Source: a virus (taxonomy: Duplodnaviria; Caudoviricetes). From it: a stretch of DNA of 60,381 nucleotides. Both the position numbers and the translations under genes were made by a program. The DNA lies in the IMG/VR virus record IMGVR_UViG_3300037235_000083, positions 1-60,381 of that record. One strand, given 5' to 3'. Shown here piece after piece: positions 4,801 to 60,381 of this stretch (position 1 is its first letter; every line of letters begins with the position of its first letter). The notes beneath the pieces were generated by a model that worked only from the letters and a program-made list of their open reading frames with translations, ran no database searches and was not told the DNA's origin.

Positions 4801-4846
4801 AAAAGAAAATGACCCGGAATACCCGCTCTTTTCCTAGACATAACGC

Positions 4847-4875
4847 TTGACTTACTGATTTACCTGGGCTATGCT
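4847..4875 (+). promoter_or_regulatory. rightward sigma70-type early promoter
   Basis: TTGACT-17 nt-TATGCT at the strand switch point. Confidence 0.75.
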
Positions 4876-4911
4876 TCGTTATGTGGTGGTTGGTTCTTTC
4901 AGGAGGTTGAA

Positions 4912-4995
4912 ATGGTGGTCTTCGGTGTCGTGATGGTGGTCTTCGCGGTGGTCGTGGTCGCCGGAATGTCGGCCTCCGAATCGGTGGGATTCTGA
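4912..4995 (+). CDS. 27-aa Val-rich membrane microprotein
   Basis: AGGAGG SD then MVVFGVVMVVFAVVVVAGMSASESVGF*; next gene starts 2 nt after the stop. Confidence 0.65.
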   Translation: MVVFGVVMVVFAVVVVAGMSASESVGF

Positions 4996-4997
4996 CC

Positions 4998-5216
4998 GTG
5001 GCCAAATACATGTTCGAAATCGAAGACAGCGACGGCAACGATTCGACGCAGGAAGTCTGCGCGCTGACCTACGCCCAAGCCCGCAAACAGGCCTGCAATC
5101 GCCACGACCGCCAGCTTGGTTACGAACCGGGCGACGAGGGCAACGGGCCGATGATTGTGCGTTGCACTCTGACGCACACGACCGATCGCAATGCAGCCCA
5201 TAAGGTGGCATCGTGA
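4998..5216 (+). CDS. hypothetical protein
   Basis: Operon packing. Confidence 0.65.
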   Translation: MAKYMFEIEDSDGNDSTQEVCALTYAQARKQACNRHDRQLGYEPGDEGNGPMIVRCTLTHTTDRNAAHKVAS

Positions 5217-5419
5217 AAACCTACTACCAGAAAGTGATCGAGCCGCTTGCCCCGGGTTACGACCCGCGTCACATCGAGGCCTACATGCGCATGGGCTTCT
5301 CGACCCTGGACGGCCTGAGCGAGCGCCAGTTCCGCGCCCAGGTCGGGATCGCAAAATTCTGCGTCGACGAGGCCGGTCACGAGATGGCCGAACGCGTTGC
5401 GCAGTCCTTCGGACTCTGA
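5213..5419 (+). CDS. hypothetical protein
   Basis: DPRHIEAYMR...TLDGLS...F; GTGA coupling. Confidence 0.7.
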   Translation: MKTYYQKVIEPLAPGYDPRHIEAYMRMGFSTLDGLSERQFRAQVGIAKFCVDEAGHEMAERVAQSFGL

Positions 5420-5422
5420 CCC

Positions 5423-5707
5423 ATGCCGCTCGAACCGACCCCCGCCGATCTGAAGGCGAAAATCAACGCGATGCTGGACGCGATCGCCCCTTTGATGGCC
5501 AGCCTGTATGCGCGCTGGCAGGATGAACGCGATTACGAGGACATCGACGAGTATGCGGTCCCGATCCGCAAGCATCTCCCGGAAGGCTTCAGCCTGTCCC
5601 AGATGCATCGCCGGCCGTTCGGCTTCAGTTTTGTGTGCGTCGGCTTCGATGCGGAATACCAGTTCTCTGTCACCGCTCGCGCGGTCGGTTGGAAGCGCAA
5701 GACCTGA
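5423..5707 (+). CDS. hypothetical protein
   Basis: LYARWQDERDYEDIDEY...RPFGF phage-type motif. Confidence 0.7.
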   Translation: MPLEPTPADLKAKINAMLDAIAPLMASLYARWQDERDYEDIDEYAVPIRKHLPEGFSLSQMHRRPFGFSFVCVGFDAEYQFSVTARAVGWKRKT

Positions 5708-5723
5708 AAGGGGAAAGACCAAG

Positions 5724-6074
5724 ATGGCCAGCAAATTGAACGTGAGCGTCGACGAGTTCGTCGCCACCGCCAAGCAGGAAATCATCATGGAGTGTGTCGG
5801 AGAGCGCCCCGGCATGAAGGTAATCCCGTGGCGCACTCTCACATCGTTCGAGCAGTTACACGACTACCGAGACGCTAACGAATTCGGGGGTTTTTGCGAC
5901 GACAGCATCGCCGACGCCCTGATCGAGCACTTCGGCGGCCGCGACGCAAACGAGGGCATGCCGGACGCGATGCTCGATTTCATGAACCAGGTGCATAACG
6001 CGCTCGATGTCTGGATCCGCACCGGCGGCTTGCGTCGCGAAGTCAACGGCTGGTACGACGCGCGCGAAGTCTGA
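5724..6074 (+). CDS. hypothetical protein
   Basis: SD AGGGG; SFEQLHDYRDANEFGG motif. Confidence 0.7.
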   Translation: MASKLNVSVDEFVATAKQEIIMECVGERPGMKVIPWRTLTSFEQLHDYRDANEFGGFCDDSIADALIEHFGGRDANEGMPDAMLDFMNQVHNALDVWIRTGGLRREVNGWYDAREV

Positions 6075-7066
6075 TGCGGCACGCGTACTACAACGAAAAC
6101 GAGCCGTTCGCGGCACAATGGCTCCGGAATCTGATCACGGCTGGCCACATTTCGGCTGGCGTGGTCGATGACCGATCAATTGTGGATGTTCGATCCGATG
6201 ACCTCAAGGGCTTCGCGCAGTGCCACTTCTTCGCCGGCATCGGAGGGTGGGCCTACGCGCTCCAGCTCGCCGGCTGGCCCGTCGACCGACCTGTTTGGAC
6301 AGGCTCTTGCCCCTGTCAGCCTTTCTCGAACGCCGGCAAAGGCAATGAGTTCGCTGATGCGCGCCACTTATGGCCGGCTTGGTTCGCTCTCATCGGCGAG
6401 CGGCGCCCTTCAATCATCTTTGGTGAGCAGGTTGCAGTGCGCAAAGGGCTTGCCTGGTTCGACCATGTGGCGACTGACTTGGAAGCTGCGCACTACGCCG
6501 TCGCGGCGGCCGATCTGTGCGCTGCTGGCGCGGGAGCGCCGCATATCCGGCAACGCCTCTGGTTCGTGGCCTACGCCAGTATCGCCGCGGGAACACGATT
6601 CGGATCAGACGGCGGGGAAGTGGTACGCCTCGAAGAATCAGGCATATCTGGATTGCGTCGCGCAGCTGGCGTCCTGGCCGACACCGACGAAGGTAGACGC
6701 CATTCGAGGGGTAGAGACGAACCAAGCGCGCCTCGATCGAGGAGCGAAAACCGGAACCACGCTGAACGACGCGGCCGCCTGGGCGACGCCGAACGCGCGG
6801 GACTTCAAGGTGGGATCTTCGACGACATACCTCGAGCGCACCGGACAGAAGAAGGGCGACAGTTTGAGCAACCAGGCCGCGAGCCTTGGGCCGAAATCGA
6901 TTGGCTCGCCTGTCGGGACGGGAAAAACCGGCCAACTAAACCCGAGCTTTTCCCGCTGGCTCATGGGATTCCCGGCCGCGTGGGACGCCTGCGCGCCTAC
7001 GGCAACGCGATCGTCCCGCAAGTTGCTGCCGAATTCATCCGCGCCGTGATGGATTGCCTGCCGTGA
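6074..7066 (+). CDS. DNA (cytosine-5) methyltransferase, main (alpha) frame
   Basis: FFAGIGG (motif I), GSCPCQPFS (IV), GEQV (VI variant), HIRQRLW (VIII), YGNAIVPQVA (X). Confidence 0.92.
   Translation: MRHAYYNENEPFAAQWLRNLITAGHISAGVVDDRSIVDVRSDDLKGFAQCHFFAGIGGWAYALQLAGWPVDRPVWTGSCPCQPFSNAGKGNEFADARHLWPAWFALIGERRPSIIFGEQVAVRKGLAWFDHVATDLEAAHYAVAAADLCAAGAGAPHIRQRLWFVAYASIAAGTRFGSDGGEVVRLEESGISGLRRAAGVLADTDEGRRHSRGRDEPSAPRSRSENRNHAERRGRLGDAERAGLQGGIFDDIPRAHRTEEGRQFEQPGREPWAEIDWLACRDGKNRPTKPELFPLAHGIPGRVGRLRAYGNAIVPQVAAEFIRAVMDCLP
6168..7049 (+). CDS. nested +1-frame ORF, putative beta subunit of the methyltransferase
   Basis: 293-aa open frame inside the MTase with WPTP/WPTP/WATP repeats and LNPSFSRWLMGFP (motif IX-like); GC3-rich codons where the main frame is atypical. 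Confidence 0.75.
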   Translation: MTDQLWMFDPMTSRASRSATSSPASEGGPTRSSSPAGPSTDLFGQALAPVSLSRTPAKAMSSLMRATYGRLGSLSSASGALQSSLVSRLQCAKGLPGSTMWRLTWKLRTTPSRRPICALLARERRISGNASGSWPTPVSPREHDSDQTAGKWYASKNQAYLDCVAQLASWPTPTKVDAIRGVETNQARLDRGAKTGTTLNDAAAWATPNARDFKVGSSTTYLERTGQKKGDSLSNQAASLGPKSIGSPVGTGKTGQLNPSFSRWLMGFPAAWDACAPTATRSSRKLLPNSSAP

Positions 7067-47760: not shown

Positions 47761-50700
47761 TTACACGACGCGCAGGCCTGCCGCGGCTGGCGACAGACTG
47801 GCAATCACGCTGTCGACCGTCGCCGCGGAGTCCGCCGCCATGCGCGGGGGCGGCTCACCGTCGGGCCGGCGCTTGGGCTGCGCGGCCAGAATGTGCTTGT
47901 AGGCGGTCGGGTGCACGTCGGTTAAGTCGATTTCCAAGGCTTCGAGCGCCGCCTTGAAGACGCCCTCAGCCGTATCGCAGGCGAGGGTGAGCTTGCCGAC
48001 CCACGGCTGCACGAAGGCCTCGGCGTCGGCCAGGGCGCGCATCTGCGCCATGGTTTCCTTGCGCGTGTTCTTGGTCGCCTCGGCGATCGCCGCGTCCATG
48101 GCGGCCTTGCTGACTGCTTGGGTCATGGCTGCGTCCTTGTCCTTGAGGGGGTCCTTGCCGGGTGAGGTTGCTGGGGGTTTGGGCTGACCTTCGCCGCCAG
48201 GCGGTTCATCCTGGGCCGGCTTCGTTTCTGCCGGAGTGGGCGAGCCCGCTGGCGCAATTTCGGCATGCGGGCCGGCGGGGCGCAGCGCCTTGAGCTTTTC
48301 GCCCAGCCAAGCGTGATGCTCAGGCTTCAGGTGGGGCTTTAAAGCCTCCAGGATTTCGTTCACCGGATCGGCTTCCCCCGGCTTGGCGCCCGGTGCCGCC
48401 GGTGCTGCGGCGGCCGGCGCGGCTGGCGGTTCGCCTTCGGCCGGCGGGGCATCACCGGCTGCACCATAATCGGAATCCAGCGGTTCGGCGCCGCCGGGCG
48501 CCGGCTCGCCAGCTGGCGGCTCGCCCCCGGCTTCGCCCTCGAGCCCGTCAAGCAATTGCGTCAGGGATGCAACGCTCGCATCCTTGGCCAGGACAGTCGC
48601 CGGCAGTTTCAGCTTGCGAACGGCGGCGATGATTTCGGGCTTTTTCGTCTTCCAGTTATCCGAGGCGCACCCGATCAGGATCTTGTTCAGATCCTTTGCG
48701 AACGCGGGGCGCGCGTCTTTTGCCAGCAGTGGCGGAAGGACCGCGAGCAAGGCTCCCTTCGCCAGCATGGCCTTCCGTGACAGCACTTGCTGGGTGGTTC
48801 CCATCTGACCTGACTCCTTTGGTTGGCTATCTCCCACGATTACGTCGGATCCCGCGCGACCGTCCCGCACCAGTGCGACATGGTTGCCTCGGATTTCACG
48901 CATCACGCCGTCGTAACGGCGCCCCTCGAATACGCCCGGCGTCATATCGGCCACGTACCGGTACGAAGCCGACAGTTCACGCGTCTGATTCGTTTCGATC
49001 TGGTCGCACGCGTCCCCGTCCCAGAACACGAGCGAATTGGTGAGGTACGGCGCATTGAAGGCTGCATCCGTTCCGGTCGACCCGATCACCAGTTCCTTGT
49101 CCAGGTCATCAGCGGTGGTGGGCCGGTGATCGGACAGGAGCGGAATGTTGTTGAAGGTCGGAACCGCCTTGGCCAATTCCTGCGGATCGCGCAGCAGGTA
49201 ATAGACCTTGCGTGGTTCGAGCCCGAGTTCTTCGGCGTCCGGAATCTCGAAACCGTAGTACGGGTTGACGGTCGCCTTGCTGATGTTGGCGACCTCGATG
49301 TGCAGCCGGCCGTCCTGGTCGTAGCTGCGCACGCTCGCGCGATCGAACGCCAGCCGTTCGCCGGTGGCGCGATCGAATGCCAGTTCGGGATCTTCGGCCA
49401 GCTCATCGCCAGCCAAGCGGGCAGGGCGCCCGCTATCGTCTACGGAACTGTCTCGTCCGGATGATCCTTCAGGAAGGCTTGCGCTTCCTGGTCCGCCTGG
49501 TCGTCCGCTTCGTTCGCCAGATCCACCAAGGTCTTGCCCTGATGTTTGGCCGCGAACTTCTTCACGGCTTCCGCCACCTTGGCCGGATCCAGTGAGATAT
49601 TCGTATCGGTCTTGCTTGATTCGGCCATCGTCGAGCAGCTTTTTGGCAACGAGTTTCAGAGACGACTTGATGACCTCTGGATCATACCTCGGAACATCAT
49701 CGATCGATCCGACGTGGATATCGCCCAGGTGGCCCTGATTGTTCAGGATATTGATCTTGACTCTGGGATTGCCCGCATAGTGCTGCGCCAGTTCGCGCAC
49801 CGTTTTCGAGGCGCCCAGATGCGCGTGCTCGAGCGTTGCGCCTTGTACGGCCCGCTTGCGGATCGCGTTGAACGCGAAAGCCTTCTCGATGGGCGAGTTC
49901 GTGTAAACGATGCTGACCGGGCCCGGGGCCGTGTTCAGCGCCTCGTCGATTTTCTTGATCGCGGACTTCGTGTTCGACAGCGTCGAATCGAAGGTCAAGC
50001 CATCGTCAGGCAGCCCTAGCGCCTGGATCGCGACGTCCATCGCTTCGGACTTGCCCGACCCGCTGCCGCCGGCCGTGAACAAGGTCGGGCTCTTATCGCC
50101 GCGCGCGGCCTTGTCCTTCAGTGCCGCCGTGAAGATCATCTTCGACAGCAGCGAAGAGGGCTCATGAACCACCGGCGCGAGCTTGCGATCGCCGACGAAC
50201 GATCGGGACAGGAGTTTCACCTTGTCCGGATCGATCACGTTGCCGAAGCGCTTGCGATAGGTACCGATCAGCGCCTTCGGGTTGTGGCGGATCGCGTCGT
50301 AGAAGCCCTGCTCGATCGCGCGGTGCTCAGGGCTCAGGCCCGCGGCGCGCGTGAAGCCGTGCTCGTCGATGTGCTCAGCTTGTGCAGCGCTCTTTTTCGC
50401 CTGCACGGTTGCGGCACGTTTCGCGGCCGTTTTTTCCTTCTTTTCGTTGGCTAGGTCTTCTTCCTGGAGCGCGTTGGCCTGTTCATACAGACGGCGACTT
50501 TCCTGTGGGTTGCTCGCCCGCAGCGCATTGGATTGCCGCAGTAGATCCTTTTGTTTAGCCCGATTGGCTTCCCGGTTGAATGGCGCAGCGCCACCGCCCT
50601 CACCGAACCGTCCACCCTCGTCGCGCGGGTGCTTGGACTCGTCCCACTCAGCGTCCATTCCCATGCGCGCCGCGGCAAGCATCGGCAGGATGCGTTCTAC

Positions 50701-51087: not shown

Positions 51088-51762
51088 TTAATAGGTGAAG
51101 GGCGCCGCAGGCGGGGTGAAATTCGCTGTGTAGCGCGCGACTCCCATGGAAATGCGTGCTTCGTCAACGTATCCGTTCCAGCTGCTAGTGCCGCCAGCAT
51201 TAGCCGCTCCGATCGCCTGGCCCGTCATGCCTTTGATAATTGAACCGCTATACGTAGCGGATCCTTGTGAAACACCGTTCAAGTAGGTGTTGAAATTATT
51301 TCCGTGCCTGACACCTGCCACGTGATACCAGGTGCCCGTTGACAGAGTTGCACCCGAGGTAAACGCGACACTCCAATTGGTACCGCCGTCAGCACTGCCG
51401 CATAGCAAAGTGATCACGCCGCCGTTTAGAAATAAAAGCACTCCCGAAAATCCGGCACCTTGTGAACCGAAGATAACCTGTGATCCCCCAATGCTGATGG
51501 CGTAGACAAAAGCCTCATAGGTCCAATCCTGAAGGAGCGCAGCGAAGATATCGTTGCTCGTGCTTATAAAAGCACCGCCAGGAAGCAACAGCGAACTGGG
51601 GCCGAACTTCTGCTGTGCCGTCGATAGCGTCGCACTACTACCCGACCACGTACTTGAGTAAACGTCGGTAAAGGTGGTCGAACCATTCGTGCCATCGAAG
51701 TGCAGCAGCGCAGTGCTGACGATGATGCTGCTGCGATAGCGCGTCGCTAAAGCGCCAGTCAC
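51088..51762 (-). CDS. LamG/concanavalin-like domain protein (virion decoration)
   Basis: LLHFDGTNGSTTFTD..WYHVA.VR..YLNG..GYVDEARIS..YTANFTPP; GTGA coupling. Confidence 0.82.
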   Translation of the reverse strand: MTGALATRYRSSIIVSTALLHFDGTNGSTTFTDVYSSTWSGSSATLSTAQQKFGPSSLLLPGGAFISTSNDIFAALLQDWTYEAFVYAISIGGSQVIFGSQGAGFSGVLLFLNGGVITLLCGSADGGTNWSVAFTSGATLSTGTWYHVAGVRHGNNFNTYLNGVSQGSATYSGSIIKGMTGQAIGAANAGGTSSWNGYVDEARISMGVARYTANFTPPAAPFTY

Positions 51763-52472
51763 GTCAGGTCCCCACCGATCAGCCAGGTATCGCTGCCCAA
51801 ATATTTGGCCCATATGGTGGAGTTTTGGGCGCGCGCCGTGAGCGAACTGGGGTTCGCAAAGGTCACGCCGGCACCTGCCACGAACGCCGTCTGTCCGGCG
51901 CCAAGTTGTGGCACGACAATGAGCGTACCCGTGACCCAGGCCGTCGTGCTGTGCGGGTCGAGCGTCACGTTGTTGGCCGAGGCGTTGTTCATGGTGACCC
52001 AGCCCTCGTAATTCGAAGACTGTGGCGCATCGGCGAGAACCGGGTGATAACTCGTCCCGGTTTGCGGGTTAATCGGTGGGGCACTCCCAGTGGCCGGAAG
52101 CGCAGTCCATGCTGGAGCGCCCGCCACCGAAGTCAGAACGTAGTTGGCGGTGCCGATGCCAAGCCTTGCCGCTGCTCCGGAAACCCCGCCGATGATGATG
52201 TCGCCAGCCGTGGTCATCGGATTGGCAAGACCGGTGGCCGCTGCCCACGCTGGTTCGCCCGCAACGACCGTCAGGACTTGGCCAGTAGATCCGATCGGTA
52301 TCCGCTCCGGCGTGCCGCTTGTGCCGCCGTCGATCAGATCGCCGGAAGCGGTCATCGGATTCGTCATACCGCCGCCGCCCCCGCCGCTGATTGCCTGCGC
52401 TACGGCCGCGGCCGTGCTGGGCGCATCCCCGCTGGCAATGGCGCGCGCTTGCGCTGGAGTCAGGGATGTCAT
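51759..52472 (-). CDS. head fibre-like protein
   Basis: Two NPMT..GD.I.GG.SG...R..IG....VLT.VAG.PAW repeats; C-terminal IN.QTGTSY..W.IGGDL domain. Confidence 0.72.
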   Translation of the reverse strand: MTSLTPAQARAIASGDAPSTAAAVAQAISGGGGGGMTNPMTASGDLIDGGTSGTPERIPIGSTGQVLTVVAGEPAWAAATGLANPMTTAGDIIIGGVSGAAARLGIGTANYVLTSVAGAPAWTALPATGSAPPINPQTGTSYHPVLADAPQSSNYEGWVTMNNASANNVTLDPHSTTAWVTGTLIVVPQLGAGQTAFVAGAGVTFANPSSLTARAQNSTIWAKYLGSDTWLIGGDLT

Positions 52473-52482
52473 CGGATAAACC

Positions 52483-52821
52483 TCAGAGGATATTGGTGAC
52501 GTTGAACACGGTCGGATTGACGCTGGACGTGCATGTCACAGCGTCGCCTGGCCGCAGCAAAAACTGGCCCGAGGTAAGGCCCGTGATGCCGCCCTGCGAT
52601 AGTGTGATCACGGTGATGGTGCCACCGTCGATGGTGACCGTTTGCAGATAAGGGCCCGGATTCGTGTAGGGGATGCCGTTGCCTGGATAGGTCGTGGCGA
52701 CGGTCGGGCCGGTCTGCGGCGCTCGCATCAGCTGGTTCAGCACTTGCGCAAGCGTTTGCGTGTCGCCCGCCGCGATGGCCTGGATCATCTGGGCGGACAG
52801 GGCAGAGGTCAGGGCTCCCAT
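52483..52821 (-). CDS. small putative virion protein
   Basis: SD GGAGAG; beta-rich YTN.GP..GGT...I...G.F.LRPGD. Confidence 0.65.
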   Translation of the reverse strand: MGALTSALSAQMIQAIAAGDTQTLAQVLNQLMRAPQTGPTVATTYPGNGIPYTNPGPYLQTVTIDGGTITVITLSQGGITGLTSGQFLLRPGDAVTCTSSVNPTVFNVTNIL

Positions 52822-52854
52822 TTTGGATAGCTCTCCGTGAGTGAACGTATCGGG

Positions 52855-52884
52855 AAAAAAGAAACGCCCTCTGGAAGAGGGCGC
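52855..52884 (-). terminator. intrinsic terminator
   Basis: GCGCCCTCT-TCC-AGAGGGCGT followed by TTCTTTTTT on the minus strand. Confidence 0.8.
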
Positions 52885-52923
52885 CCCTGGCCTCGATCGC
52901 GGCCTACGCGTCGGTGTGCTGTG

Positions 52924-53205
52924 TCAGCCTGTGCGCTCGCTGTCGCGATCGCTTTCGCGCACGGGCCACGTACAAAACGGTACCGGAGCCACAGCCCCGT
53001 CCTGCGCTAGGTAAACCTTCTCCTGTGAGAACAGGTTCCCGTAACAGTCGAACACGGCTAGGTTCACCAAGTTCGGGCTATGCACGAACACGACCGTGGC
53101 CGCCAGCGGTACCGGACCCTCGCCTGGATCCGGAATGGGCCTGGACCCCGGAAACATTTCGTCTGGCCAAAACCAGACTTGTCGGCCGACTGTGGGCTTG
53201 ATCAT
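52924..53205 (-). CDS. conserved phage protein
   Basis: MIKPTVGR.VW..PLAA.V..V....VNLAVFD..G. Confidence 0.75.
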   Translation of the reverse strand: MIKPTVGRQVWFWPDEMFPGSRPIPDPGEGPVPLAATVVFVHSPNLVNLAVFDCYGNLFSQEKVYLAQDGAVAPVPFCTWPVRESDRDSERTG

Positions 53206-53381
53206 TTTTGCCGCTCCATTGATCGCTGACCCTCGATGAGTTTGCGCACCCGCTTCATGAGCGCGGCATCGCACTCCGGGCACAAACGCTCATACCAGAT
53301 GGTCCTCGAGCATCCGTGGCACTTCCTGAACCCCAGCAGTCGCAAGAAAAGGTTCACCGGCGGTAAGTATGCCCCGCTCAC
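53202..53381 (-). CDS. small Zn-finger protein
   Basis: CHGC...CPEC; coupled start and stop. Confidence 0.55.
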   Translation of the reverse strand: MSGAYLPPVNLFLRLLGFRKCHGCSRTIWYERLCPECDAALMKRVRKLIEGQRSMERQK

Positions 53382-53653
53382 CTCCAGAGCGCATCCAGAG
53401 CGTCGGCTGGCGACTGGCGCGGATCCCGCACGGTACGTCTTATGGCCACGGCTGCAATCAGCTTGGCGATCGGGACGGTGCGCAGCTGGATCAGGATCGG
53501 GGGCGCCTTCGGTTGCACGAACGTGCGCAGCGTGCAGGCACACCAGCTGTTCACGTGCCCCGGCAAAGCCACTATCTGGACCGGCTGGCGGCAGCGGGTG
53601 CACGCCTGCTCACCATTATCATCCGGGCCCCAGTGGCGAACGCGCTCAGCCAT
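53378..53653 (-). CDS. small Zn-finger protein
   Basis: CTRC...WCAC. Confidence 0.5.
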   Translation of the reverse strand: MAERVRHWGPDDNGEQACTRCRQPVQIVALPGHVNSWCACTLRTFVQPKAPPILIQLRTVPIAKLIAAVAIRRTVRDPRQSPADALDALWR

Positions 53654-53867
53654 CGCCCGCAGCCCTAATTTGGCTAGGCTGAGTCCGACCGGCAGCAATG
53701 TGGCGAAGGTGGCGGGCGCGTTCACGCTCGCCATGGTGCGGATAGGATCGGCCGCGCTTGTCATCAAGCGCCACTGAGCGCGCTGGAATGGAGCGCTGAC
53801 CGAGATTCGCGAATGCTCCCATTGCGGACATCATCATCAAAGCTGGACTAATTTCGCGCTTTCCCAA
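53646..53867 (-). CDS. hypothetical protein
   Basis: Fills the gap after MuF. Confidence 0.45.
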   Translation of the reverse strand: MGKREISPALMMMSAMGAFANLGQRSIPARSVALDDKRGRSYPHHGERERARHLRHIAAGRTQPSQIRAAGDG

Positions 53868-53868
53868 T

Positions 53869-54750
53869 TTACGACTCCATTCGACCGAGTCCCGGAATCA
53901 CGGACCGGCTGACACACCGGCAATTGATCAACTCGCCCGGAAAGATGTACTGCTGTTCCTTCTCGGACCACATGCCTTCACTGATCTTGTAGCGTTTTCG
54001 CGCTGCGCCCCACGCGACATGATCCGGGCGCGGCTCGCGTCCGCCGCCGCTGTGCACCCAGATCGCTTCGGTGATCCCCAGTTCATGCTGCCGCACGCGG
54101 ATACGCGTCGCGGTCGCCTTGTTGTTCTGGTCCCGTGCGATCAGAGCGGCCCGGCGTTCGGTGCGTGCCGAGAGTGACTTGTTAGACTCGCCGGGCTTGC
54201 GACCCAGGCCGATACGCGCCAGGTTCACCTTCGGCCCCAGGTAGTCGGTCAGCGCCGCAAGGTCGCGCCCTACCGCGGCCGATCGCATGACCTCGGTTTC
54301 GATGTCTGTGAAGTAGCGCTGCGGGATCGATTTGATCAGGGACACGTTCTCGCCCGTGGTCGCTTGCCAGACGTCGCGGGTGAGCGGCGTTGTGCGCAAC
54401 CGCACAGAAAAAGCGTGCTTTGCCAGAATCGCCTTCAGCGCCGCGTCGGTGCGCTCGCTAACCTTGGTCGCGAAATACTCGGCTAGGTCCGGGGCCAGTT
54501 CATCGAACCGTTGCTGCCAGCGCTTGGCCAGAGCCCGGATGATCCGGCGCAGGATGACCGATGGGGCGTCGTCCTGCGCCATGCGCGGCGTGTGCGCCCG
54601 ATACGCGGCGGTGAGCCAGTGCACGACGCTGTTGTGCATCTGGGCAATCAGCAATAGCAGCCGGCGCCGGTATTCGACCTCGAGGCCAACGTTGGGGTGG
54701 ATAGGCGCGGCGACTTTAATCGTCGTCTTCGCCGCCTTCGCCATCGTCAT
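53869..54750 (-). CDS. head morphogenesis protein (MuF/SPP1 gp7 family)
   Basis: ENVSLIKSIP, RAALIARDQ..KA, W.HS...PR..H, PGELINCRC. Confidence 0.9.
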   Translation of the reverse strand: MTMAKAAKTTIKVAAPIHPNVGLEVEYRRRLLLLIAQMHNSVVHWLTAAYRAHTPRMAQDDAPSVILRRIIRALAKRWQQRFDELAPDLAEYFATKVSERTDAALKAILAKHAFSVRLRTTPLTRDVWQATTGENVSLIKSIPQRYFTDIETEVMRSAAVGRDLAALTDYLGPKVNLARIGLGRKPGESNKSLSARTERRAALIARDQNNKATATRIRVRQHELGITEAIWVHSGGGREPRPDHVAWGAARKRYKISEGMWSEKEQQYIFPGELINCRCVSRSVIPGLGRMES

Positions 54751-54889
54751 CTTCCGGAATGCTTAGCTTGGCCAGTTCGCGCGCCGTCTGCCGATCCTCT
54801 TCCTCCCACGGTTTCAATCCCAGCATCGCGCGCACCAAGTTCCCGCCAGCCGGGGATTTCCAGATCGCTTTCGCATCAGGGCTCAGCAT
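54716..54889 (-). CDS. 57-aa acidic protein overlapping the portal stop (candidate inhibitor/immunity)
   Basis: SD AAGGGG then MLSPDAKAIWKSPAGGNLVRAMLGLKPWEEEDRQTARELAKLSIPEDDDGEGGEDDD*; below track cutoff. Confidence 0.65.
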   Translation of the reverse strand: MLSPDAKAIWKSPAGGNLVRAMLGLKPWEEEDRQTARELAKLSIPEDDDGEGGEDDD

Positions 54890-57869
54890 GACCAATCCCC
54901 TTCAGTACGTCTTCGCGGCTCGCGGTCGGGATCTGCTCCCCGAAAATGTCGATGCCGCCTCGTTGAGATTCCTGGAAAGCGAAATCGGCCGCCGATCCCA
55001 AGCGTTCGCCGATCGCCTTACCGCTGCGAATGTTCTCCGCCATCATGCTGGCGATGGCGCCTTCGGCGCTGTTCGTGAGTAGATCGCCCTGTTTCAGGAA
55101 CTTCTTCACTGACACGCCGGAGCGCACCGCGTTGATGATTTGCTTGGCAGCACCGGTGACCAGTTCGCGGATGTCCAGTTCGCCCGCGTCTTTCAGCTTG
55201 GCCATCGAGCCGGCCGCGCGGCTCATGCCGGCGATCAGGGTTCTGGATTCCGGGTCGGTCGCCTGAGCCATCAGCCCGACCAGTTCCGAATCGCCGTAAG
55301 CAGCGTGGAAGGTCGCCGCGTGCATCCGGTCTATCGCCTGGCGGGTAGGGCGCCCGTTCGGCGCAAGCGACTGCTGTTCCGAGGCCGGCATCGTCTGTAT
55401 GAAACCGCGCACTGAGGCCTCGGACGGCTGCCCATCATCGTCGTAATCGATCTGGGACGCATCGAACCGATCCGCGTCGTTTCGGGCCTGCTCCACCGCC
55501 GACAGCGTCAAGGTCTGCGTCGTGTTCGACTCGTCTGCTATGCCCTCGGACACGTCGTCTGCATCCATGACCCGGACCAGTACCGGCGATTTCATCGCGC
55601 GGATCGTCTTGCCCGGGATCCCGTGCACCTTGGCGCCCGCGGCGATCGCCGCCTTGTAGGCATCCGCGGTGCCTTTCTTGTAGGCCTCGATGACGCCGGC
55701 CGTGCGGCCGTTATTGATCGCGACCATCTTGTCAGGGTCTTTGGCGTAGTCGGCGTTCTTCACGCCGTCAGCGCTGTTGGACGTGGATATCTGATCGGCT
55801 TCGACCACCGCGTAACGAACGCCCAGTTCGCGCTTTGGCGTCACGATGATGTCCCGGTGGCCGGTGGCCACGGCAATCCCGCGACCGTGAAGATCGGCCA
55901 CCACGGGCGCGCCGTCGGCCATCGTGGGCGCTGCCATCAGTAGGCGCGGGTTCGGGTTGGCCGCGATCTTGGACATCTGGTTGATGCTCGCCGCGCTCGA
56001 GCGGTTGCGGTTCTGCAAAGACTTCAGCAACCCCTCGAGCTTGGCCGAATGCTCAGGCTTGGGCGCCTCGCCCGCGCCTTCCTTGCCGGCTTTGCGCAGC
56101 ACCATCCCGTTCATGCTGCCGCCCGCGCCACCCTTGACCACCCCGCCTTCGGTGATCAGCACCGGCTGGCCACCGCCTTCTTTGCCGCCGTGTACGGTGA
56201 TCCACTTTTCATCGTGGGCCGGCACGGCGCCATTAGGGCGCGCGCCCGGCGGCCGTGCTCCATTGGGGGGCGGCACCGCGCCCGCGTTCGGATTCGGCGG
56301 CTGTTCGGGTCCAGGCTCGCCCTCCGGACCCAGGCCAGGCAGGCCCATCCCTTCCTCGCCAGGCGGTTCGGGCACCATGCTCACGTCCAGCCCGGAATAG
56401 GGCGAGTCTTCCTGCTGGGCCACCCGGTTGCGCGCCTCAGCCGGCGAAATGACGCCGGAATTGATCATCACTTCGTCGGTGTCGGCCTCCACCTTGCGGG
56501 TTTCGGCCAGGATCTTCATATCGTCGTCCGTCAACGGTTCGTACTTGAAACCGATTTCAGGATCGATTTCACCGAACTTCGCAAGCTGAACGATGTTCAG
56601 AATTCGCGTGATCGGCGGCGTATACAGCGATTGCTGCCAGCTCAGGACATTGCGCCCGAACGTCTTCAGTTCCGGCTCAGCCGTCGCATTCAGGCCCTTG
56701 GGCGTGATGCCGAACATGATGATGAGCGGGATGCCGGTCACCGCAGCCTGGTGTTCCTGTGACTGCGCCTGCAATGCATCCAGGGTACCCAGCGGAACAC
56801 TGATGTTGTCGAGTTCTTCAGTGTCCTTATTGAGCATGAACAGGCTGCGGTTATCGCGCGCGCGATTGAAAAGGTCCGCGCGATTGAACATCTGCGTGCC
56901 GGCGCCCGCATTCAGGATGTCCGTCAGATCCGTCTTAAGCGCCATCACGGAAAAATTGTGGATCAGGTCGGACACCGACTGCCGCGTTCGCAGCCAGTTG
57001 TCCACGTATGGCTTCATGATCTGCGTGAGCGACAGGCCCCCGAACCCGTACACCGGTTTGAGCATGTCCGGCACCGGCCGGCTGACCAGCGTCAGCATCC
57101 GGCTGGCGTGCACTTCCGTGCCCATCACATACCAGCTGGTCGCCTTGAAGAAGTCCGGTTTGAGCGGATTCTGGCTGTTGTAGCGATTCGGATACGTCCA
57201 CATCGCTTCGACCGGAACGAGTTGCTGAATACCTCTGCCGATCTTGGACCTCACATCCAGCAACGGCATCGCCAGTTCGTTTCGATCGCGCTCGCTATCA
57301 ACGCCGATCATGTCAAGGAACAGCTGCCCGCGTCCGAAAAACCCGTCATGCTCGGACATCGTGCAAAGCCGGTCCTGCACTTTCAGCCGCTTGAATTCGG
57401 CCTCGATCACGTCGATCTTGTCGTCTTTGTTTTGTTCTCCCGTGGCGGTGAACTTGATCCATTTCATCGTCATCGCCTTGGCGATGATTTCCGACGGACG
57501 GCGGTATTCGGCCCGCTGGGTCAGTTCGGCCAAGTACGGGTAACCGAAGAAGGTCATCCCCTCGCTAAAGCGGCTGTTCGTCATCCAGTCGAACGTGGAT
57601 GACATGTCCGAGTCCATCGCGAGCTTTACCTTGCTCGGAATCACACCGGGGTGAGGGTCAGCCGTTTCCCATTTCGTGCCGGCGGAAGTCGGCCCAGCCG
57701 CGGCCAAGGCCTCGTCGCTGATCCGCATCGGCGCGCGCCGAACCGGCGTGCCGAGGGGTGCCGCGCTGGCGACCGTTTCCAGTGCGGACGAGACTGGCGC
57801 AGGGCCTTTCGAGGGGGGAGAGAGGTGCCAGCCACGCGCCAGCGCGGCAACCTTCGCGAGCCAGTTCAT
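54876..57869 (-). CDS. portal protein (DUF1073-like) fused to a DdrB/ParB-like domain
   Basis: F.GYPYLAEL.QR.EYR, YVDNWLRTRQSVSDL, G.TP.GLNA; extension LQNRNRS..AS..Q...GAPVV..YAVVEA..NGRT..AY..PVLVR. Confidence 0.88.
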   Translation of the reverse strand: MNWLAKVAALARGWHLSPPSKGPAPVSSALETVASAAPLGTPVRRAPMRISDEALAAAGPTSAGTKWETADPHPGVIPSKVKLAMDSDMSSTFDWMTNSRFSEGMTFFGYPYLAELTQRAEYRRPSEIIAKAMTMKWIKFTATGEQNKDDKIDVIEAEFKRLKVQDRLCTMSEHDGFFGRGQLFLDMIGVDSERDRNELAMPLLDVRSKIGRGIQQLVPVEAMWTYPNRYNSQNPLKPDFFKATSWYVMGTEVHASRMLTLVSRPVPDMLKPVYGFGGLSLTQIMKPYVDNWLRTRQSVSDLIHNFSVMALKTDLTDILNAGAGTQMFNRADLFNRARDNRSLFMLNKDTEELDNISVPLGTLDALQAQSQEHQAAVTGIPLIIMFGITPKGLNATAEPELKTFGRNVLSWQQSLYTPPITRILNIVQLAKFGEIDPEIGFKYEPLTDDDMKILAETRKVEADTDEVMINSGVISPAEARNRVAQQEDSPYSGLDVSMVPEPPGEEGMGLPGLGPEGEPGPEQPPNPNAGAVPPPNGARPPGARPNGAVPAHDEKWITVHGGKEGGGQPVLITEGGVVKGGAGGSMNGMVLRKAGKEGAGEAPKPEHSAKLEGLLKSLQNRNRSSAASINQMSKIAANPNPRLLMAAPTMADGAPVVADLHGRGIAVATGHRDIIVTPKRELGVRYAVVEADQISTSNSADGVKNADYAKDPDKMVAINNGRTAGVIEAYKKGTADAYKAAIAAGAKVHGIPGKTIRAMKSPVLVRVMDADDVSEGIADESNTTQTLTLSAVEQARNDADRFDASQIDYDDDGQPSEASVRGFIQTMPASEQQSLAPNGRPTRQAIDRMHAATFHAAYGDSELVGLMAQATDPESRTLIAGMSRAAGSMAKLKDAGELDIRELVTGAAKQIINAVRSGVSVKKFLKQGDLLTNSAEGAIASMMAENIRSGKAIGERLGSAADFAFQESQRGGIDIFGEQIPTASREDVLKGIGHAEP

Positions 57870-59321
57870 TTACGCGCCTGCGATCGCCGCGGCGGAAATG
57901 CGCATCGGATCCAGGCCAGGGGCGAAGATGCTGACGCACGCGTCCGCCAGATTCGGCGATGGCACTTCGCGCTTCAGCAGATCCTTCTTTGATTCCACCT
58001 TGACTCGTCCGTTTTGATCGAAGTCTCGCTTCGGCGTAGATAGTTCGGCGATCAGTTTTTGCAGGTTCGGGGTATCGGAAGCGAACGAAATGATTTCGTC
58101 TTCCTTGAACTTTTCGGCCTTGCGCACCGCGTTGTATGTGTTGCGGCAGCGATCGGCGACCAGCCACCAGGTCTGAGCCTTCAGGTTCGCGAACTGGTCT
58201 TTGTTCTGCGTGGTCGTTCTGGCGTATCTCGCATCCGGGTGCCAGACCCCGGCGCCCGCGTTGAACTTCGAGTACGTGATGAACTTCGCATAGTCCGGCT
58301 CGAGCGCTGGCGGGTGCAGATGATTGGCTAGGTTCAACTCGCCGAATTTCGCGCCCGCCATGGCGCCCACGCCGATCGAGTCGTACACGATATGGGCACC
58401 GCGGTTCGTAGCTTCGCGATACACGCGCGTGCAGGATTTGAGCAGTTCGTCTTCCCCGCCTTTCCACTGCTCGGACCATGAAACGAGCGGCCCATGCCCG
58501 AAGACCTGGGCGTTCAGATCCTTACCTTCGTCGGCGACGTCGAATCCGATCCGGCGCGCGCCCTTCGGTTCCACCTTCAACGCTAGGTGCGCGTCGACCG
58601 CGGCCATCAGCCAGGACCGCTTGATCACGGACGATTCTTCGTCCGTCTTCGGCACACCCAGGTAAATGTGCTGGTATTCCTCGAAATCGCGCGCTTTCAG
58701 TTCCAGGATCGTTTCCAGGAAGTCCGGCGCCAGGAACGGGTTTTCCTCGTAATTGATCAGGCGAACGAGCGTTCGGGGAGGCGGGTTCAGTACGAAATGC
58801 TCGTAGACGAAATCGGTCGCCAGGTACGGATTGAAGATGATCCAGAGCTGGGCGCCGCGCTTGCGCGCGGTGGCCTCGATAACGAGCCACTGTTCCTCGG
58901 TCAGCGCCTCGGCTTCCTCGATCAGGAAAACGTCGATCCCCTCAAGGCCCTTGATTTCCCGAATCTGGCGCCAGATGCCGTAGAAAAGGAATTCAGACTT
59001 GGTCGCCTTGTTGACGATCTTGGCTTCATGCGCCACGAACCGGCGGCCCAAGCCGAATCGGTCGATGGTGTCGACCAGCACCGGCTGCACGGACTCTGAG
59101 AGCTTGTTCTGGAATTGGCGGCAGCAGCACACCCGCAGGCGCGCGTTGTCGGCCATGTAGATCAGCCGGCCGCACGCATCCCACGTCTTGCTCGAGGCCC
59201 GCCCGCCGTACAGGACCCGGTTCCGGTACTGCTTGCCGCTAGCCGGGTCGATGTTCGCGTCCCAGAACGGGCGCAAGCACGGATTCAGGCGCGGGCGCCC
59301 CGCGTACGCACCGTCAGGCAC
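57870..59321 (-). CDS. terL: terminase large subunit (PBSX-type)
   Basis: GGRASSKT, RQFQNK..ESV, IEEAE, IFNP, GFDVADEG.D, SPNLADA. Confidence 0.93.
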   Translation of the reverse strand: MPDGAYAGRPRLNPCLRPFWDANIDPASGKQYRNRVLYGGRASSKTWDACGRLIYMADNARLRVCCCRQFQNKLSESVQPVLVDTIDRFGLGRRFVAHEAKIVNKATKSEFLFYGIWRQIREIKGLEGIDVFLIEEAEALTEEQWLVIEATARKRGAQLWIIFNPYLATDFVYEHFVLNPPPRTLVRLINYEENPFLAPDFLETILELKARDFEEYQHIYLGVPKTDEESSVIKRSWLMAAVDAHLALKVEPKGARRIGFDVADEGKDLNAQVFGHGPLVSWSEQWKGGEDELLKSCTRVYREATNRGAHIVYDSIGVGAMAGAKFGELNLANHLHPPALEPDYAKFITYSKFNAGAGVWHPDARYARTTTQNKDQFANLKAQTWWLVADRCRNTYNAVRKAEKFKEDEIISFASDTPNLQKLIAELSTPKRDFDQNGRVKVESKKDLLKREVPSPNLADACVSIFAPGLDPMRISAAAIAGA

Positions 59322-59323
59322 GC

Positions 59324-60019
59324 TTACGCCGACGCAGGCGCGTCCGGTTCCGGATAGAACAGGGACAGACCCGCCGGCACGGACCCGGCCGGCGCATCCT
59401 TCGACAGCCCGTAAACGTCGGCCTCGGCGAGCAGCAGGGCCCCGGCGCTGGACATCAGCTTGTTGAACATGGTGATCCGCGCCTCGAGCGTGACGGCGTT
59501 TTCGACATCGGAAATCTGGTTCAAGGTCCCGCGGCGGGCGTTCGGATCCTCGATCTTTTCTGCCAAGTCGCGCAGCTGGCCCAGCAGGGCGGTCGACGCG
59601 TTGGCATCCATGCCCTCCATTTCGGCGACGAGCTTGGTCGCGGCGCTGCGCAGGCGTTCGACCATGGCGCGCCGGCCGGTCTGGACTTGGGCGATGATCG
59701 CGGCTTCGGCGCTGACGACTTCGCGCTCGGTAGCCTTACTGACTTGGCTACCCGGCTTGGCTACTGACTGCTTGGCTACCAGCGCGGCGGCCTTGGCGTG
59801 GATGCGTCCCTGGAGGTCGCGATCCCATCCGTCACGCTTGGCGCGCTTCTGGATCGCGGCGTGGGTGATGCCGTGCTGACCGGCAATCTCGCGTAAGGTC
59901 TTGAAACCAGCGCGAAAATCGATTTCGACGCGCTCCCAGTCAATGGATTTACGGGCAGCGCCATTGCCGTCGAGAGCGCCGGCAAGCTGCGAGTTAGTGG
60001 GGTCGGACATCATGTTCAT
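59324..60019 (-). CDS. terS: terminase small subunit
   Basis: DWE.VE.DFRAG..TLREIA..HGITH.AI.KRAKRDGW.RDL; upstream of terL. Confidence 0.85.
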   Translation of the reverse strand: MNMMSDPTNSQLAGALDGNGAARKSIDWERVEIDFRAGFKTLREIAGQHGITHAAIQKRAKRDGWDRDLQGRIHAKAAALVAKQSVAKPGSQVSKATEREVVSAEAAIIAQVQTGRRAMVERLRSAATKLVAEMEGMDANASTALLGQLRDLAEKIEDPNARRGTLNQISDVENAVTLEARITMFNKLMSSAGALLLAEADVYGLSKDAPAGSVPAGLSLFYPEPDAPASA

Positions 60020-60234
60020 GGCGTCTGGGTGCTTCGCTCGTTGCTACTGCTGCGCGGCACCCTCAAGCGCCACGTATGCTGCGGGCTCATGTTCATGCCA
60101 AGGTCGCGCATCTCTGCTGTGCTGCGGCAGCGCTTTGGAGCATTGCGTGGCGCGCGCCGAACCCCGGTAGCGTGCAGTTCGAAGGCCTCGCCAGACGCAA
60201 AGGACTGGCCGCAGCCAACGCAGCGCAGCGGCAT
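60016..60234 (-). CDS. small Zn-binding phage protein
   Basis: C.GCG..F.S..AF..H.....RC....M...G. Confidence 0.65.
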   Translation of the reverse strand: MPLRCVGCGQSFASGEAFELHATGVRRAPRNAPKRCRSTAEMRDLGMNMSPQHTWRLRVPRSSSNERSTQTP

Positions 60235-60381
60235 AGGTCGGAAACAGGCTTTTTAGGGGACGGTGAACGTCCCGCAACCCGGCTGGCACCCGCCGGCCAG
60301 CGCCGACCGATCCCAGAAGAACACTGCATGGTGGTCACAACCTCGGCTTAGCCAAGTCCAGGCCGACGGCGAAGCCGCTGC

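Follow-up and report, generated by a model that had tools for sequence, protein, structure and literature searches.

A DdrB-type module on a phage portal protein, with swapped ParB blocks and a conserved microprotein gene at its stop codon

In tailed phages, the portal, the MuF protein and the capsid-processing peptidase are described as anchors for effector domains that are presumed to be injected (PMC5512222, PMC9503650; these papers, like the others cited below, are used in extract). The same two papers list the DdrB-like ParB domain as a domain of polyvalent proteins and describe fusions of NUDIX to the portal, MuF and the peptidase. DdrB of phage P1, the prototype of Pfam PF18763, is a head-internal protein of the Dar anti-restriction system that is co-ejected with the DNA (PMC12810830, PMC9024508), and Iyer et al. 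2017 (PMC5512222) favour nucleoside triphosphate (NTP) sensing or degradation, or else NTP-regulated nicking, for the DdrB-like ParB domains. A paper on the moonlighting of the T7 portal (PMC13483052) is tangential to the present question. Here we analyse a viral DNA of 60,381 bases (IMG/VR record IMGVR_UViG_3300037235_000083; the whole stretch is called the window below), a linear record that is estimated to be 79% complete and has ~62% G+C, in which a portal protein carries a DdrB-type module at its C-terminus and a gene of 57 codons, referred to as the microprotein gene, overlaps the portal stop codon.

The head-anchored polyvalent effectors are an already known class, and the portal–DdrB fusion is a further member of it. 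What goes beyond print and the family libraries is a sub-family of the ParB domain with swapped blocks, together with an unnamed microprotein module that is locked to the DdrB stop codon; the supplements of Iyer et al. 2017 may already list portal–DdrB. We propose that the locus holds a mobile, frame-preserving head cargo cassette, that its DdrB module is delivered, and that the conserved core of the microprotein serves as a docking or adaptor module, a combined reading to which we assign a probability of about 0.5.

A portal–DdrB fusion and its block-swapped ParB domain

Judged by its reading frame and its domain matches, the portal gene is a true in-frame fusion, in which a Phage_portal_3 core is followed by a leader, then by a ParB/Srx-like domain and lastly by the helical domain known from P1 DdrB (Table 1). 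The PF06381 match is nearly full length (profile positions 3-356 of 357) and the gene adjoins TerL, which together assign it to the portals. The portals of two related loci, L060 and L061, finish in a Pro-rich tail that resembles the linker of the window protein. The leader, the motif of which occurs as a single copy in the window, is conserved before the DdrB module in portal fusions and in free polyvalent proteins alike, and in the AlphaFold2 (AF2) model it forms three short strands with a predicted local distance difference test (pLDDT) of ~67-75. A derivation of the leader from block A of the ParB domain, as a degenerate duplicate, was rejected, the alignment score being 17 as against 17.8 +/- 3.5 for shuffled sequences.

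Membership of the DdrB family by sequence is secure, as the match to ddrB-ParB (PF18763, residues 616-768) has an E of 7.3e-23 and 81.4 bits, the gathering cut-off being 27.6. BLASTP aligns the protein to P1 DdrB with 27% identity over 386 columns (E 1e-28), covering P1 residues 27-410 of 995, which means that the window protein shares the ParB-like and helical domains but not the C-terminal part of the P1 protein. In line with this extent, Pfam finds no peptidase family in the 997-residue protein, so that a P1-type C-terminal region, a predicted metallopeptidase, is absent. A tblastn search of 50,697 phage records gives 33 records, among which the P1-like phages align to portal residues 670-994 at ~26% identity through features annotated as DdrB. 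In P1 itself (L062, 2977-3375), iddB is annotated on the opposite strand inside ddrB, in the region homologous to the ParB and helical domains of the window protein.

Residues N720, R722, Y738, P762, L764 and R766 are invariant across 39 aligned sequences. R722, which belongs to NGRT, aligns to the NGRT of P1 and would correspond to the conserved arginine that Iyer et al. 2017 (PMC5512222) name for the active-site pocket of ParB/Srx. Y738 lies in a helix of the model, aligns to a tyrosine of P1 and would correspond to the tyrosine in the family-specific helix named in the same paper. These assignments agree with the initial annotation, which had proposed a portal core, a Pro-rich linker, a PAHD/EKWITVHGG leader and a DdrB-like ParB domain: all of them are present, by the PF06381 and PF18763 matches, and the motifs that it quoted are found at residues 550-562 (PAHD/EKWITVHGG), 618-624 (LQNRNRS), 653-657 (GAPVV), 686-691 (YAVVEA), 720-723 (NGRT) and 762-766 (PVLVR).

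The ParB domain differs from that of P1 in the order of its parts. P1 DdrB is arranged as A (a hairpin with FDIVDA, residues 27-69), B (LQPRDR, helix and GAPII, 68-111) and C (NGRT onward, 112-165), whereas the window protein has B-A-C, which, as judged from the alignments, is a swap of the two N-terminal blocks and not a circular permutation of A-B-C. Aligned to their P1 counterparts, blocks B, A and C score 64 (shuffles 22 +/- 4.4), 58 (21.3 +/- 4.4) and 118, respectively, values reached by 0 of 1000 shuffles each, and the cross-comparisons of window B with P1 A and of window A with P1 B are at the level of chance. BLASTP leaves block B of P1 as a 41-residue gap in the window protein. The PF18763 model has the P1 order, and P1 and five homologues (P0046, P0047, P0048, P0049 and P0050) are colinear with it from profile positions 2-7 through 119-120, with the block A hairpin at positions 2-23. 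The window protein departs from this colinear order, as it matches positions 24-120 only, the model running from 1 to 121, and its block A falls in an insertion of ~56 residues; its close relatives likewise match positions 22-24 through 119-120 only. The P1 gap, the profile positions and the block alignments overturn the simpler reading of the Pfam hit as colinear and hence unpermuted. They also uphold what had been proposed in the initial annotation, namely that the YAVVEA block usually precedes LQ.R.R and that the present domain may be a permuted variant. A motif scan finds B before A in most of the proteins P0003-P0045, and the order is therefore a trait of the sub-family rather than a private oddity of the window protein. 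The string 'permut' is absent from the main text of Iyer et al. 2017 (PMC5512222), the figures and FTP files of that paper lying outside this check.

The AF2 model of residues 551-997 has a mean pLDDT of 85.8, and the model of residues 600-795 alone has a pLDDT of 88 and a predicted template modelling score (pTM) of 0.84. In a VIA-align comparison with this domain model, 7 of 48,161 PDB chains lie at Z >= 2, five of which are ParB/Srx proteins. The best of these is KorB with cytidine triphosphate (CTP; 8qa8_A), with Z 4.6 and a root-mean-square deviation of 3.0 over 85 aligned residues, the others being PadC (Z 3.1), Spo0J (2.6), pNOB8 ParB (2.2) and a free serine kinase (2.1). Among the predicted viral structures of BFVD there are 12 matches at E <= 0.001, all of them large phage proteins, six being named DdrB-like, ddrB-like ParB or large polyvalent protein domain, and phmmer of the C-terminal part against the PDB sequences gives 0 hits at E <= 1. 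The ParB/Srx fold is a putative assignment, with a support from the models that is weak in absolute score. The all-helical domain that follows matches phrog_5143, phrog_2299 and phrog_14693, all of unknown function, and its structural comparison gives generic helical-repeat matches only.

The fusion recurs. A set of 49 homologues matching portal residues 560-997 was collected from 7,999 scored candidates; ten of them, the window protein included, carry portal and DdrB, and a further 13 combine DdrB, at ~70% identity, with NUDIX and in some cases also a zeta-like domain. When the ten portal fusions are aligned, the core and the DdrB module are conserved and the space between them is variable; P0021 has a zeta-like domain there, and P0022, P0023 and P0026 have long inserts. 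Portals with C-terminal additions are also found in sequenced genomes, where 52 of 55 portal homologues are uncut by a contig end and five of the 52 (L013, L029, L030, L038 and L047) have a C-terminal tail of more than 100 residues. The tail of L038 (5411-5851) is a NUDIX domain (2.3e-17), that of L029 (5474-6043) shows by eye a canonical-looking ParB motif, DGNHR, with no Pfam hit, and that of L013 (2465-4720) is 752 residues long and matches a phosphoribosyltransferase weakly, at 20.5 bits for a cut-off of 26.3.

Table 1. Positions of the portal–DdrB fusion, its parts, the microprotein gene and the neighbouring head genes in the window
Feature	Position	Strand	Basis or content
Portal–DdrB fusion gene, 997 residues	54876-57869	(-)	Open reading frame and translation; Pfam PF06381 and PF18763
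Portal core, residues 112-466	56472-57536	(-)	Phage_portal_3 PF06381, 3e-67; phrog_146 portal protein, 3.8e-90
Pro/Gly-rich linker, residues ~500-552	56214-56372	(-)	Sequence; equals the natural Pro-rich C-terminal tail of related portals
Leader, residues 553-592	56094-56213	(-)	Motif (D/E)(H/K)WIT..GG.G...LI..GGVV.GGAGG..NG
DdrB-like ParB/Srx domain, residues 615-770	55560-56027	(-)	Pfam PF18763; block order B-A-C
Block B, residues 616-659	55893-56024	(-)	Q.R.R motif, helix, GAPVV strand; aligns to P1 DdrB 68-111
Block A, residues 670-711	55737-55862	(-)	Beta hairpin with YAVVEA, displaced to after block B; aligns to P1 DdrB 27-69
Block C, residues 713-766	55572-55733	(-)	NGRT (conserved Arg 722), helix with Tyr 738, PVLVR strand; aligns to P1 DdrB 112-165
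All-helical domain, residues 790-997	54879-55502	(-)	Common with P1 DdrB residues ~170-410; AF2 helical, pLDDT ~90
Microprotein gene, 57 residues ('N45' module and acidic tail)	54716-54889	(-)	ATG at 54889, stop 54716-54718; ends DDDGEGGEDDD
Overlap of portal stop and microprotein start, 14 nt	54876-54889	(-)	H-A-E-P-stop read as M-L-S-P-D
Shine-Dalgarno-like AAGGGG	54897-54902	(-)	7 nt before the microprotein ATG
TerL (large terminase)	57870-59321	(-)	Directly upstream of the portal–DdrB gene; Pfam and PHROG matches
MuF-like head morphogenesis gene	53869-54750	(-)	PF04233, 3.8e-7; phrog_324, 4e-64; start overlaps the microprotein 3' end by 35 nt
NUDIX / zeta-like P-loop / DUF2213 prohead protease fusion, 1105 residues	47761-51078	(-)	Pfam NUDIX and DUF2213; phrog_2229 head maturation protease, 5.5e-122

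The microprotein gene and its linkage to the DdrB stop codon

An open reading frame (ORF) of 57 residues is unremarkable by its size, as there are 94 ORFs of at least 40 residues in the last 10 kb of the window, and this one stands above chance because it is conserved. In the relative L058, the DdrB module of which is nearly identical, the ORF has 55 residues, and codons 1-45 show 13 nucleotide differences and one residue change. Over codons 6-43, where no other gene is overlapped, nine differences are synonymous and two non-synonymous, corresponding to a dN/dS of ~0.05 (binomial P = 8e-5), and the in-frame GC1/2/3 pattern of the ORF is coding-like. In L001, where the DdrB module is 98% identical, the downstream DNA diverges, yet a 62-residue version (58% identity) is kept at the same position before a quite different MuF of 582 residues. 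Taken together, the substitution pattern and this retention show the ORF to be a conserved protein-coding gene of an unannotated family. The initial annotation had described the gene as having a good Shine-Dalgarno sequence, an acidic tail and an overlap with the portal stop, and all three features hold, with purifying selection in addition.

A profile built from eight sequences and searched against 1.84 billion representatives gives 34 clusters at E <= 1e-3, 24 of which have 51-69 residues and ten of which are longer. The short members are matched over nearly the whole of an N-terminal core of ~43 residues, with the consensus P-E/D-G/A-K-x-I-W-x-S-x-A-G-G-S-L-M-x-A-M-L-G ... L-K, which is conserved across the 34 clusters at a mutual identity of at most 50%. 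An alignment of 27 free members has W10, G15, L18 and L39 (window numbering) in the core, beyond which the sequence varies as a tail. Acidic tails occur in the clade of the window only, and most of the 24 free members have tails rich in S/T/P/Q or in K.

None of 27 members of the family hits a PHROG, and the window member has no Pfam match. Searches by tblastn with the window ORF and P0067 against the 50,697 phage records return none, and with the ORF against L003-L057 nothing better than E 0.3; neither five genomes that encode related portals nor 400 genomes of a single class contain a match to the profile. Sub-alignments scanned against viral contigs add one member, L070, and the ESM Atlas returns only unnamed small viral clusters at 0.92, which is uninformative.

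At all 12 junctions examined, the start codon of the core lies inside the last codons of DdrB, the core being free in five cases, at the N-terminus of a DUF2213 protease in five and on other cargo in two. The co-occurrence of the small ORF with the DdrB domain in other phages, which had been suggested as a check, is thus found. Six of the junctions (window, L058, L001, L060, L061 and L065) can be read at the DNA level, and the start overlaps in each of them. The remaining six pair a DdrB-ending with a core-starting protein on the grounds that the longest contig is of equal size for both and that a single overlapping stretch could encode the two termini. These inferred pairs comprise two free cores (P0003/P0053 and P0023/P0063), two proteases (P0004/P0056 and P0008/P0058) and two other proteins, P0026/P0074, where the core and the W.E..HPR...GQFG junction motif precede an unknown part (219 residues), and P0027/P0076, where they precede a weak RelA_SpoT match (489 residues). 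P0074 and P0076 both follow portal–DdrB fusions, and at E <= 0.01 Pfam finds no portal, MuF or protease domain in them.

The free polyvalent proteins of L060, L061 and L065 run from NUDIX through a zeta-like domain and the leader to a terminal DdrB module, and the next gene, overlapping by 14 nt, is a core-starting DUF2213 protease. A word search for longer core homologues likewise gives DUF2213 proteins in five out of five cases. Among 41 related proteases in loci without the DdrB cassette, ~10 of which are NUDIX–protease fusions, none has the core; these proteins start just before a conserved LAFDRASVR segment or are fused behind another domain. The idea that the microprotein is a detached N-terminus of the protease family was rejected on this account.

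The 1105-residue protein of the window offers a direct comparison. It aligns to the L061 protein over residues 13-152 and 248-537 (NUDIX at 50% identity and zeta-like at 28%), after which the window protein continues into the protease and that of L061 into leader–DdrB. Over residues 564-1069 the window protein is matched by the L060 protease (residues 47-484). From these alignments it follows that the unit [leader-DdrB-stop/start-core] occurs either at the end of a portal gene or inside a NUDIX–zeta–protease gene, in frame on both sides. In the latter position the cassette splits the gene into a polyvalent protein that ends in DdrB and a protease that starts with the core. A recombination boundary is also indicated by L001, the DNA of which diverges from the window exactly at the portal gene end.

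The same loci show several further features around the cassette. L058 has an extra 46-residue ORF with a hydrophobic stretch (2580-2720) between the microprotein and MuF, absent from the window, and the MuF of L001 (2348-4096, 582 residues) contains an inserted GNAT-type acetyltransferase (Pfam 2.9e-6) behind the junction motif. At the place of the DdrB cassette and the microprotein of the window, between portal and MuF, L060 (290-724) and L061 (698-1135) have an ORF of 144-145 residues with a weak helix-turn-helix (HTH) match. In L065 the core-starting protease gene is split into two ORFs (4816-5619 and 5564-6202), the one encoding a protease domain of 267 residues and the other a scaffold-like part. 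The protease of L018 is preceded in frame (~6500-7000) by a domain with two H.T motifs (HVTIAYS and HVTITYG), which by eye is 2H phosphoesterase-like.

Proposed role of the cassette and alternative readings

We suggest that [leader-DdrB-stop/start-microprotein] behaves as a mobile cargo cassette of the head module, moving in frame. In portal structures the C-terminus points into the capsid, so that twelve DdrB modules would hang in the head on a flexible Pro/Gly tether. The prohead protease probably frees these modules near the leader; cleavage near residues 550-560 is plausible because the phage encodes a DUF2213 maturation protease and because in both settings a conserved leader marks the exact boundary of the module. 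Once freed, the DdrB modules would leave with the DNA and act on nucleotides or DNA early in infection, as anti-restriction or anti-signalling factors, and it is reasonable, by homology to P1 DdrB, to expect a virion-delivered anti-defence or nucleotide-acting role.

It is possible, at somewhat less than even odds, that the microprotein core is a docking or adaptor module working with the DdrB module. As the N-terminus of the protease or of anchor-less cargo, the core would tether these proteins to DdrB, and in its free form, as in the window, it would cap or regulate the same DdrB site, with its translation coupled to that of DdrB. We favour such a role because proteases outside the cassette do without the core, because insertion of the cassette breaks the covalent link between NUDIX–zeta and protease, which a contact between DdrB and the core would restore, and because P0074 and P0076 have no recognisable head anchor besides the core. 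More specifically, the helical end of DdrB and the ~43-residue core might form a plug-and-socket pair that loads cargo without a covalent link, an idea that we regard as doubtful. Any protein starting with the core (the prohead protease, RelA/SpoT-like cargo, or nothing further) would then be tethered to DdrB on a portal or on a polyvalent protein, and the start-in-stop overlap would keep socket and plug together as the cassette moves between head genes.

Several observations weigh against the proposal as a whole. All 12 junctions come from one DdrB sub-clade (at least 65% identity to the window), and their linkage could stem from descent of a single cassette rather than from function; the ends are different in DdrB relatives at 35-47% identity, and L070, a distant member of 50 residues, has no DdrB module upstream within its contig of 5.8 kb. 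Half of the junctions (6 of 12) rest on equal-sized contigs and code compatibility instead of DNA, and ~25 other microprotein clusters lie outside the comparison of genomic context. Cargo that is covalently bound to the portal must be cut to exit the capsid, and the cleavage site is a putative one. As for the fold, a Z of 4.6 is weak in absolute terms, and the Foldseek search that the initial annotation had suggested gives no PDB match at E <= 0.001 with either the 447-residue model or the 196-residue domain model; ParB proteins are picked up by VIA-align only.

An unlikely alternative is that the core acts independently of DdrB as a general head-incorporation signal, targeting the capsid or the scaffold, in which case the free form would be a small internal head protein and the position after DdrB an inherited gene order. 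T4 internal proteins carry short N-terminal capsid-targeting peptides, which the core resembles in standing at the N-terminus of the protease or cargo, and the junction motif that comes next also precedes other cargo modules; the L070 member without DdrB upstream fits this alternative as well. The lack of the core in 41 of 41 cassette-less proteases, however, means that the protease needs no core to enter the prohead, and all 12 junctions retain the start-in-stop overlap, whichever of three different fusions lies downstream. Coupled translation and tight linkage with the DdrB module are in line with the reading of the initial annotation, an enzyme with its inhibitor on the model of zeta and its partner. 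The microprotein would then silence the ParB-like enzyme in the producing cell in the manner of an antitoxin, perhaps as a DNA mimic by virtue of its acidic tail. We find this inhibitor role unsupported and consider it improbable. The acidic tail of the window clade and the free state of the core at five of 12 junctions speak for it, but at the other seven the core is covalently fused to a protease or other cargo, the tails of most of the 24 free members are non-acidic, and the conserved part is the N-terminal core and not the tail. Moreover, P1 DdrB has no such annotated partner, being followed by hxr, and nothing points to a toxic DdrB module.

The DdrB module might also stay undelivered, the portal-tethered ParB-like domains forming a ring that clamps the last-packaged and first-ejected DNA end in an NTP-dependent way, with a structural or DNA-retention role. 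Twelve copies would indeed ring the portal channel, CTP-dependent ParB clamps (KorB with CTP, Spo0J, PadC) are the best structural neighbours, and a cleavage site that is only putative leaves room for such a clamp. We nevertheless hold it to be distinctly improbable, as a module of ~70% identity also ends free polyvalent proteins with NUDIX and zeta-like domains, which fits ejected effectors better, and as P1 DdrB is co-ejected (PMC12810830). A very unlikely option is that the ORF has no function as a protein and is a restart or coupling ORF, or a relic of cassette insertion, that passes ribosomes from the portal gene to the next one. It does overlap both of its neighbours (by 14 nt and 35 nt), in the split-gene contexts it supplies the start codon of the downstream protease, and no promoter-like site is seen in 53500-58200. 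Against this stand the purifying selection at the protein level, with 13 nucleotide changes for one residue change, and the conservation of the core between clusters that share no more than 50% identity.

The cassette as proposed here would bear on a wider question, since virion-packaged effectors are the first phage proteins to meet the host defences and their route into the head is known for a few model phages only. A portal with twelve copies of a DdrB-type ParB domain would give a defined stoichiometry and location to this protein family, and the natural rearrangement of the ParB/Srx domain shows which elements of the fold must stay together. The short, conserved and unnamed module at the DdrB stop codon occurs free, on the prohead protease, or on anchor-less cargo. 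Were docking true, it would explain how split polyvalent proteins stay packaged and might provide a small tag by which proteins of choice are loaded into phage heads in laboratory systems; were the plug-and-socket idea true, it would amount to a new modular principle of cargo loading for tailed-phage capsids, carried on a self-contained, frame-preserving mobile cassette. If docking is false, the locus still illustrates clearly how cassettes are shuffled among the anchors portal, MuF and protease.

Gene context and comparison with known systems

The late genes of the window lie on the minus strand in the order large terminase, portal fusion, MuF-like, NUDIX/DUF2213 fusion, cement, major head, and sheath and baseplate genes. 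A megablast of 52000-60381 against the GenBank phages gives no match. The 1105-residue protein is a second head-anchored cargo of this phage, with NUDIX at residues 15-132, a zeta-like P-loop at 248-537, which has 28% identity to the part of the L061 protein that bears Zeta_toxin, and the DUF2213 protease with a scaffold-like tail at 564-1090. The profile phrog_30637 (length 1119) matches both the portal (profile 1-259) and the protease (profile 731-939) of the window, so that portal–protease fusion proteins must exist in other phages. Between MuF and the protease (51088-52472, minus strand) there are two genes with Laminin_G_3 or virion-structural matches, an unusual site for lectin-like proteins in a head module.

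A motif W.E..H(P)R...G.FG.GG stands just before the cargo modules of portal, MuF, protease and polyvalent proteins and may be a linker or a protease site. It is found in the window at 50605-50646 (minus strand), in the L001 MuF, in the portal tails of L013, L029 and L030, in the L060 polyvalent protein, and in P0061, P0065, P0074 and P0076; in P0029 it takes the place of the EHWIT leader. A discussion of this junction motif is not found in the extracts of the Iyer et al. texts.

The present locus resembles the polyvalent and head-anchored effectors of Iyer et al. (PMC5512222, PMC9503650) in having an effector domain on a head anchor within a late head module. It differs in that the portal fusions named in the extracts of those papers are PBECR, 2H and NUDIX, not DdrB-ParB, and that an overlapping microprotein is not mentioned in them. 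With P1 DdrB it shares the ParB-like and helical domains, which align, and the encoding among head genes. The P1 protein, however, is a free protein of 995 residues with the block order A-B-C and a C-terminal predicted metallopeptidase (PMC5512222), whereas in the window a module of the order B-A-C, without such a region, forms the end of the portal protein; in P1 no microprotein is annotated over the stop codon, and hxr, an Xre-like gene, comes next. The likeness to the ParB/Srx CTP-binding domains of KorB, Spo0J and PadC, the best structural neighbours, lies in the succession of a Q.R-type motif, helix, strand, G-x-x-R motif and strand, while the differences are a Z of at most 4.6, the relocation of the first hairpin, and a helical domain in place of the HTH and dimerisation domains.

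As in the pairs of a zeta toxin and its small partner, a small co-translated gene stands beside an enzyme domain, and a zeta-like P-loop domain occurs in the same phages; the partner here is downstream and often covalently fused, and its conserved part is not the acidic tail. The core has in common with the targeting peptides of T4 that it is short, N-terminal and borne by proteins bound for the inside of the prohead; it is set apart from them by its length of ~43 residues, its existence also as a free gene, and its being locked to the stop codon of DdrB.

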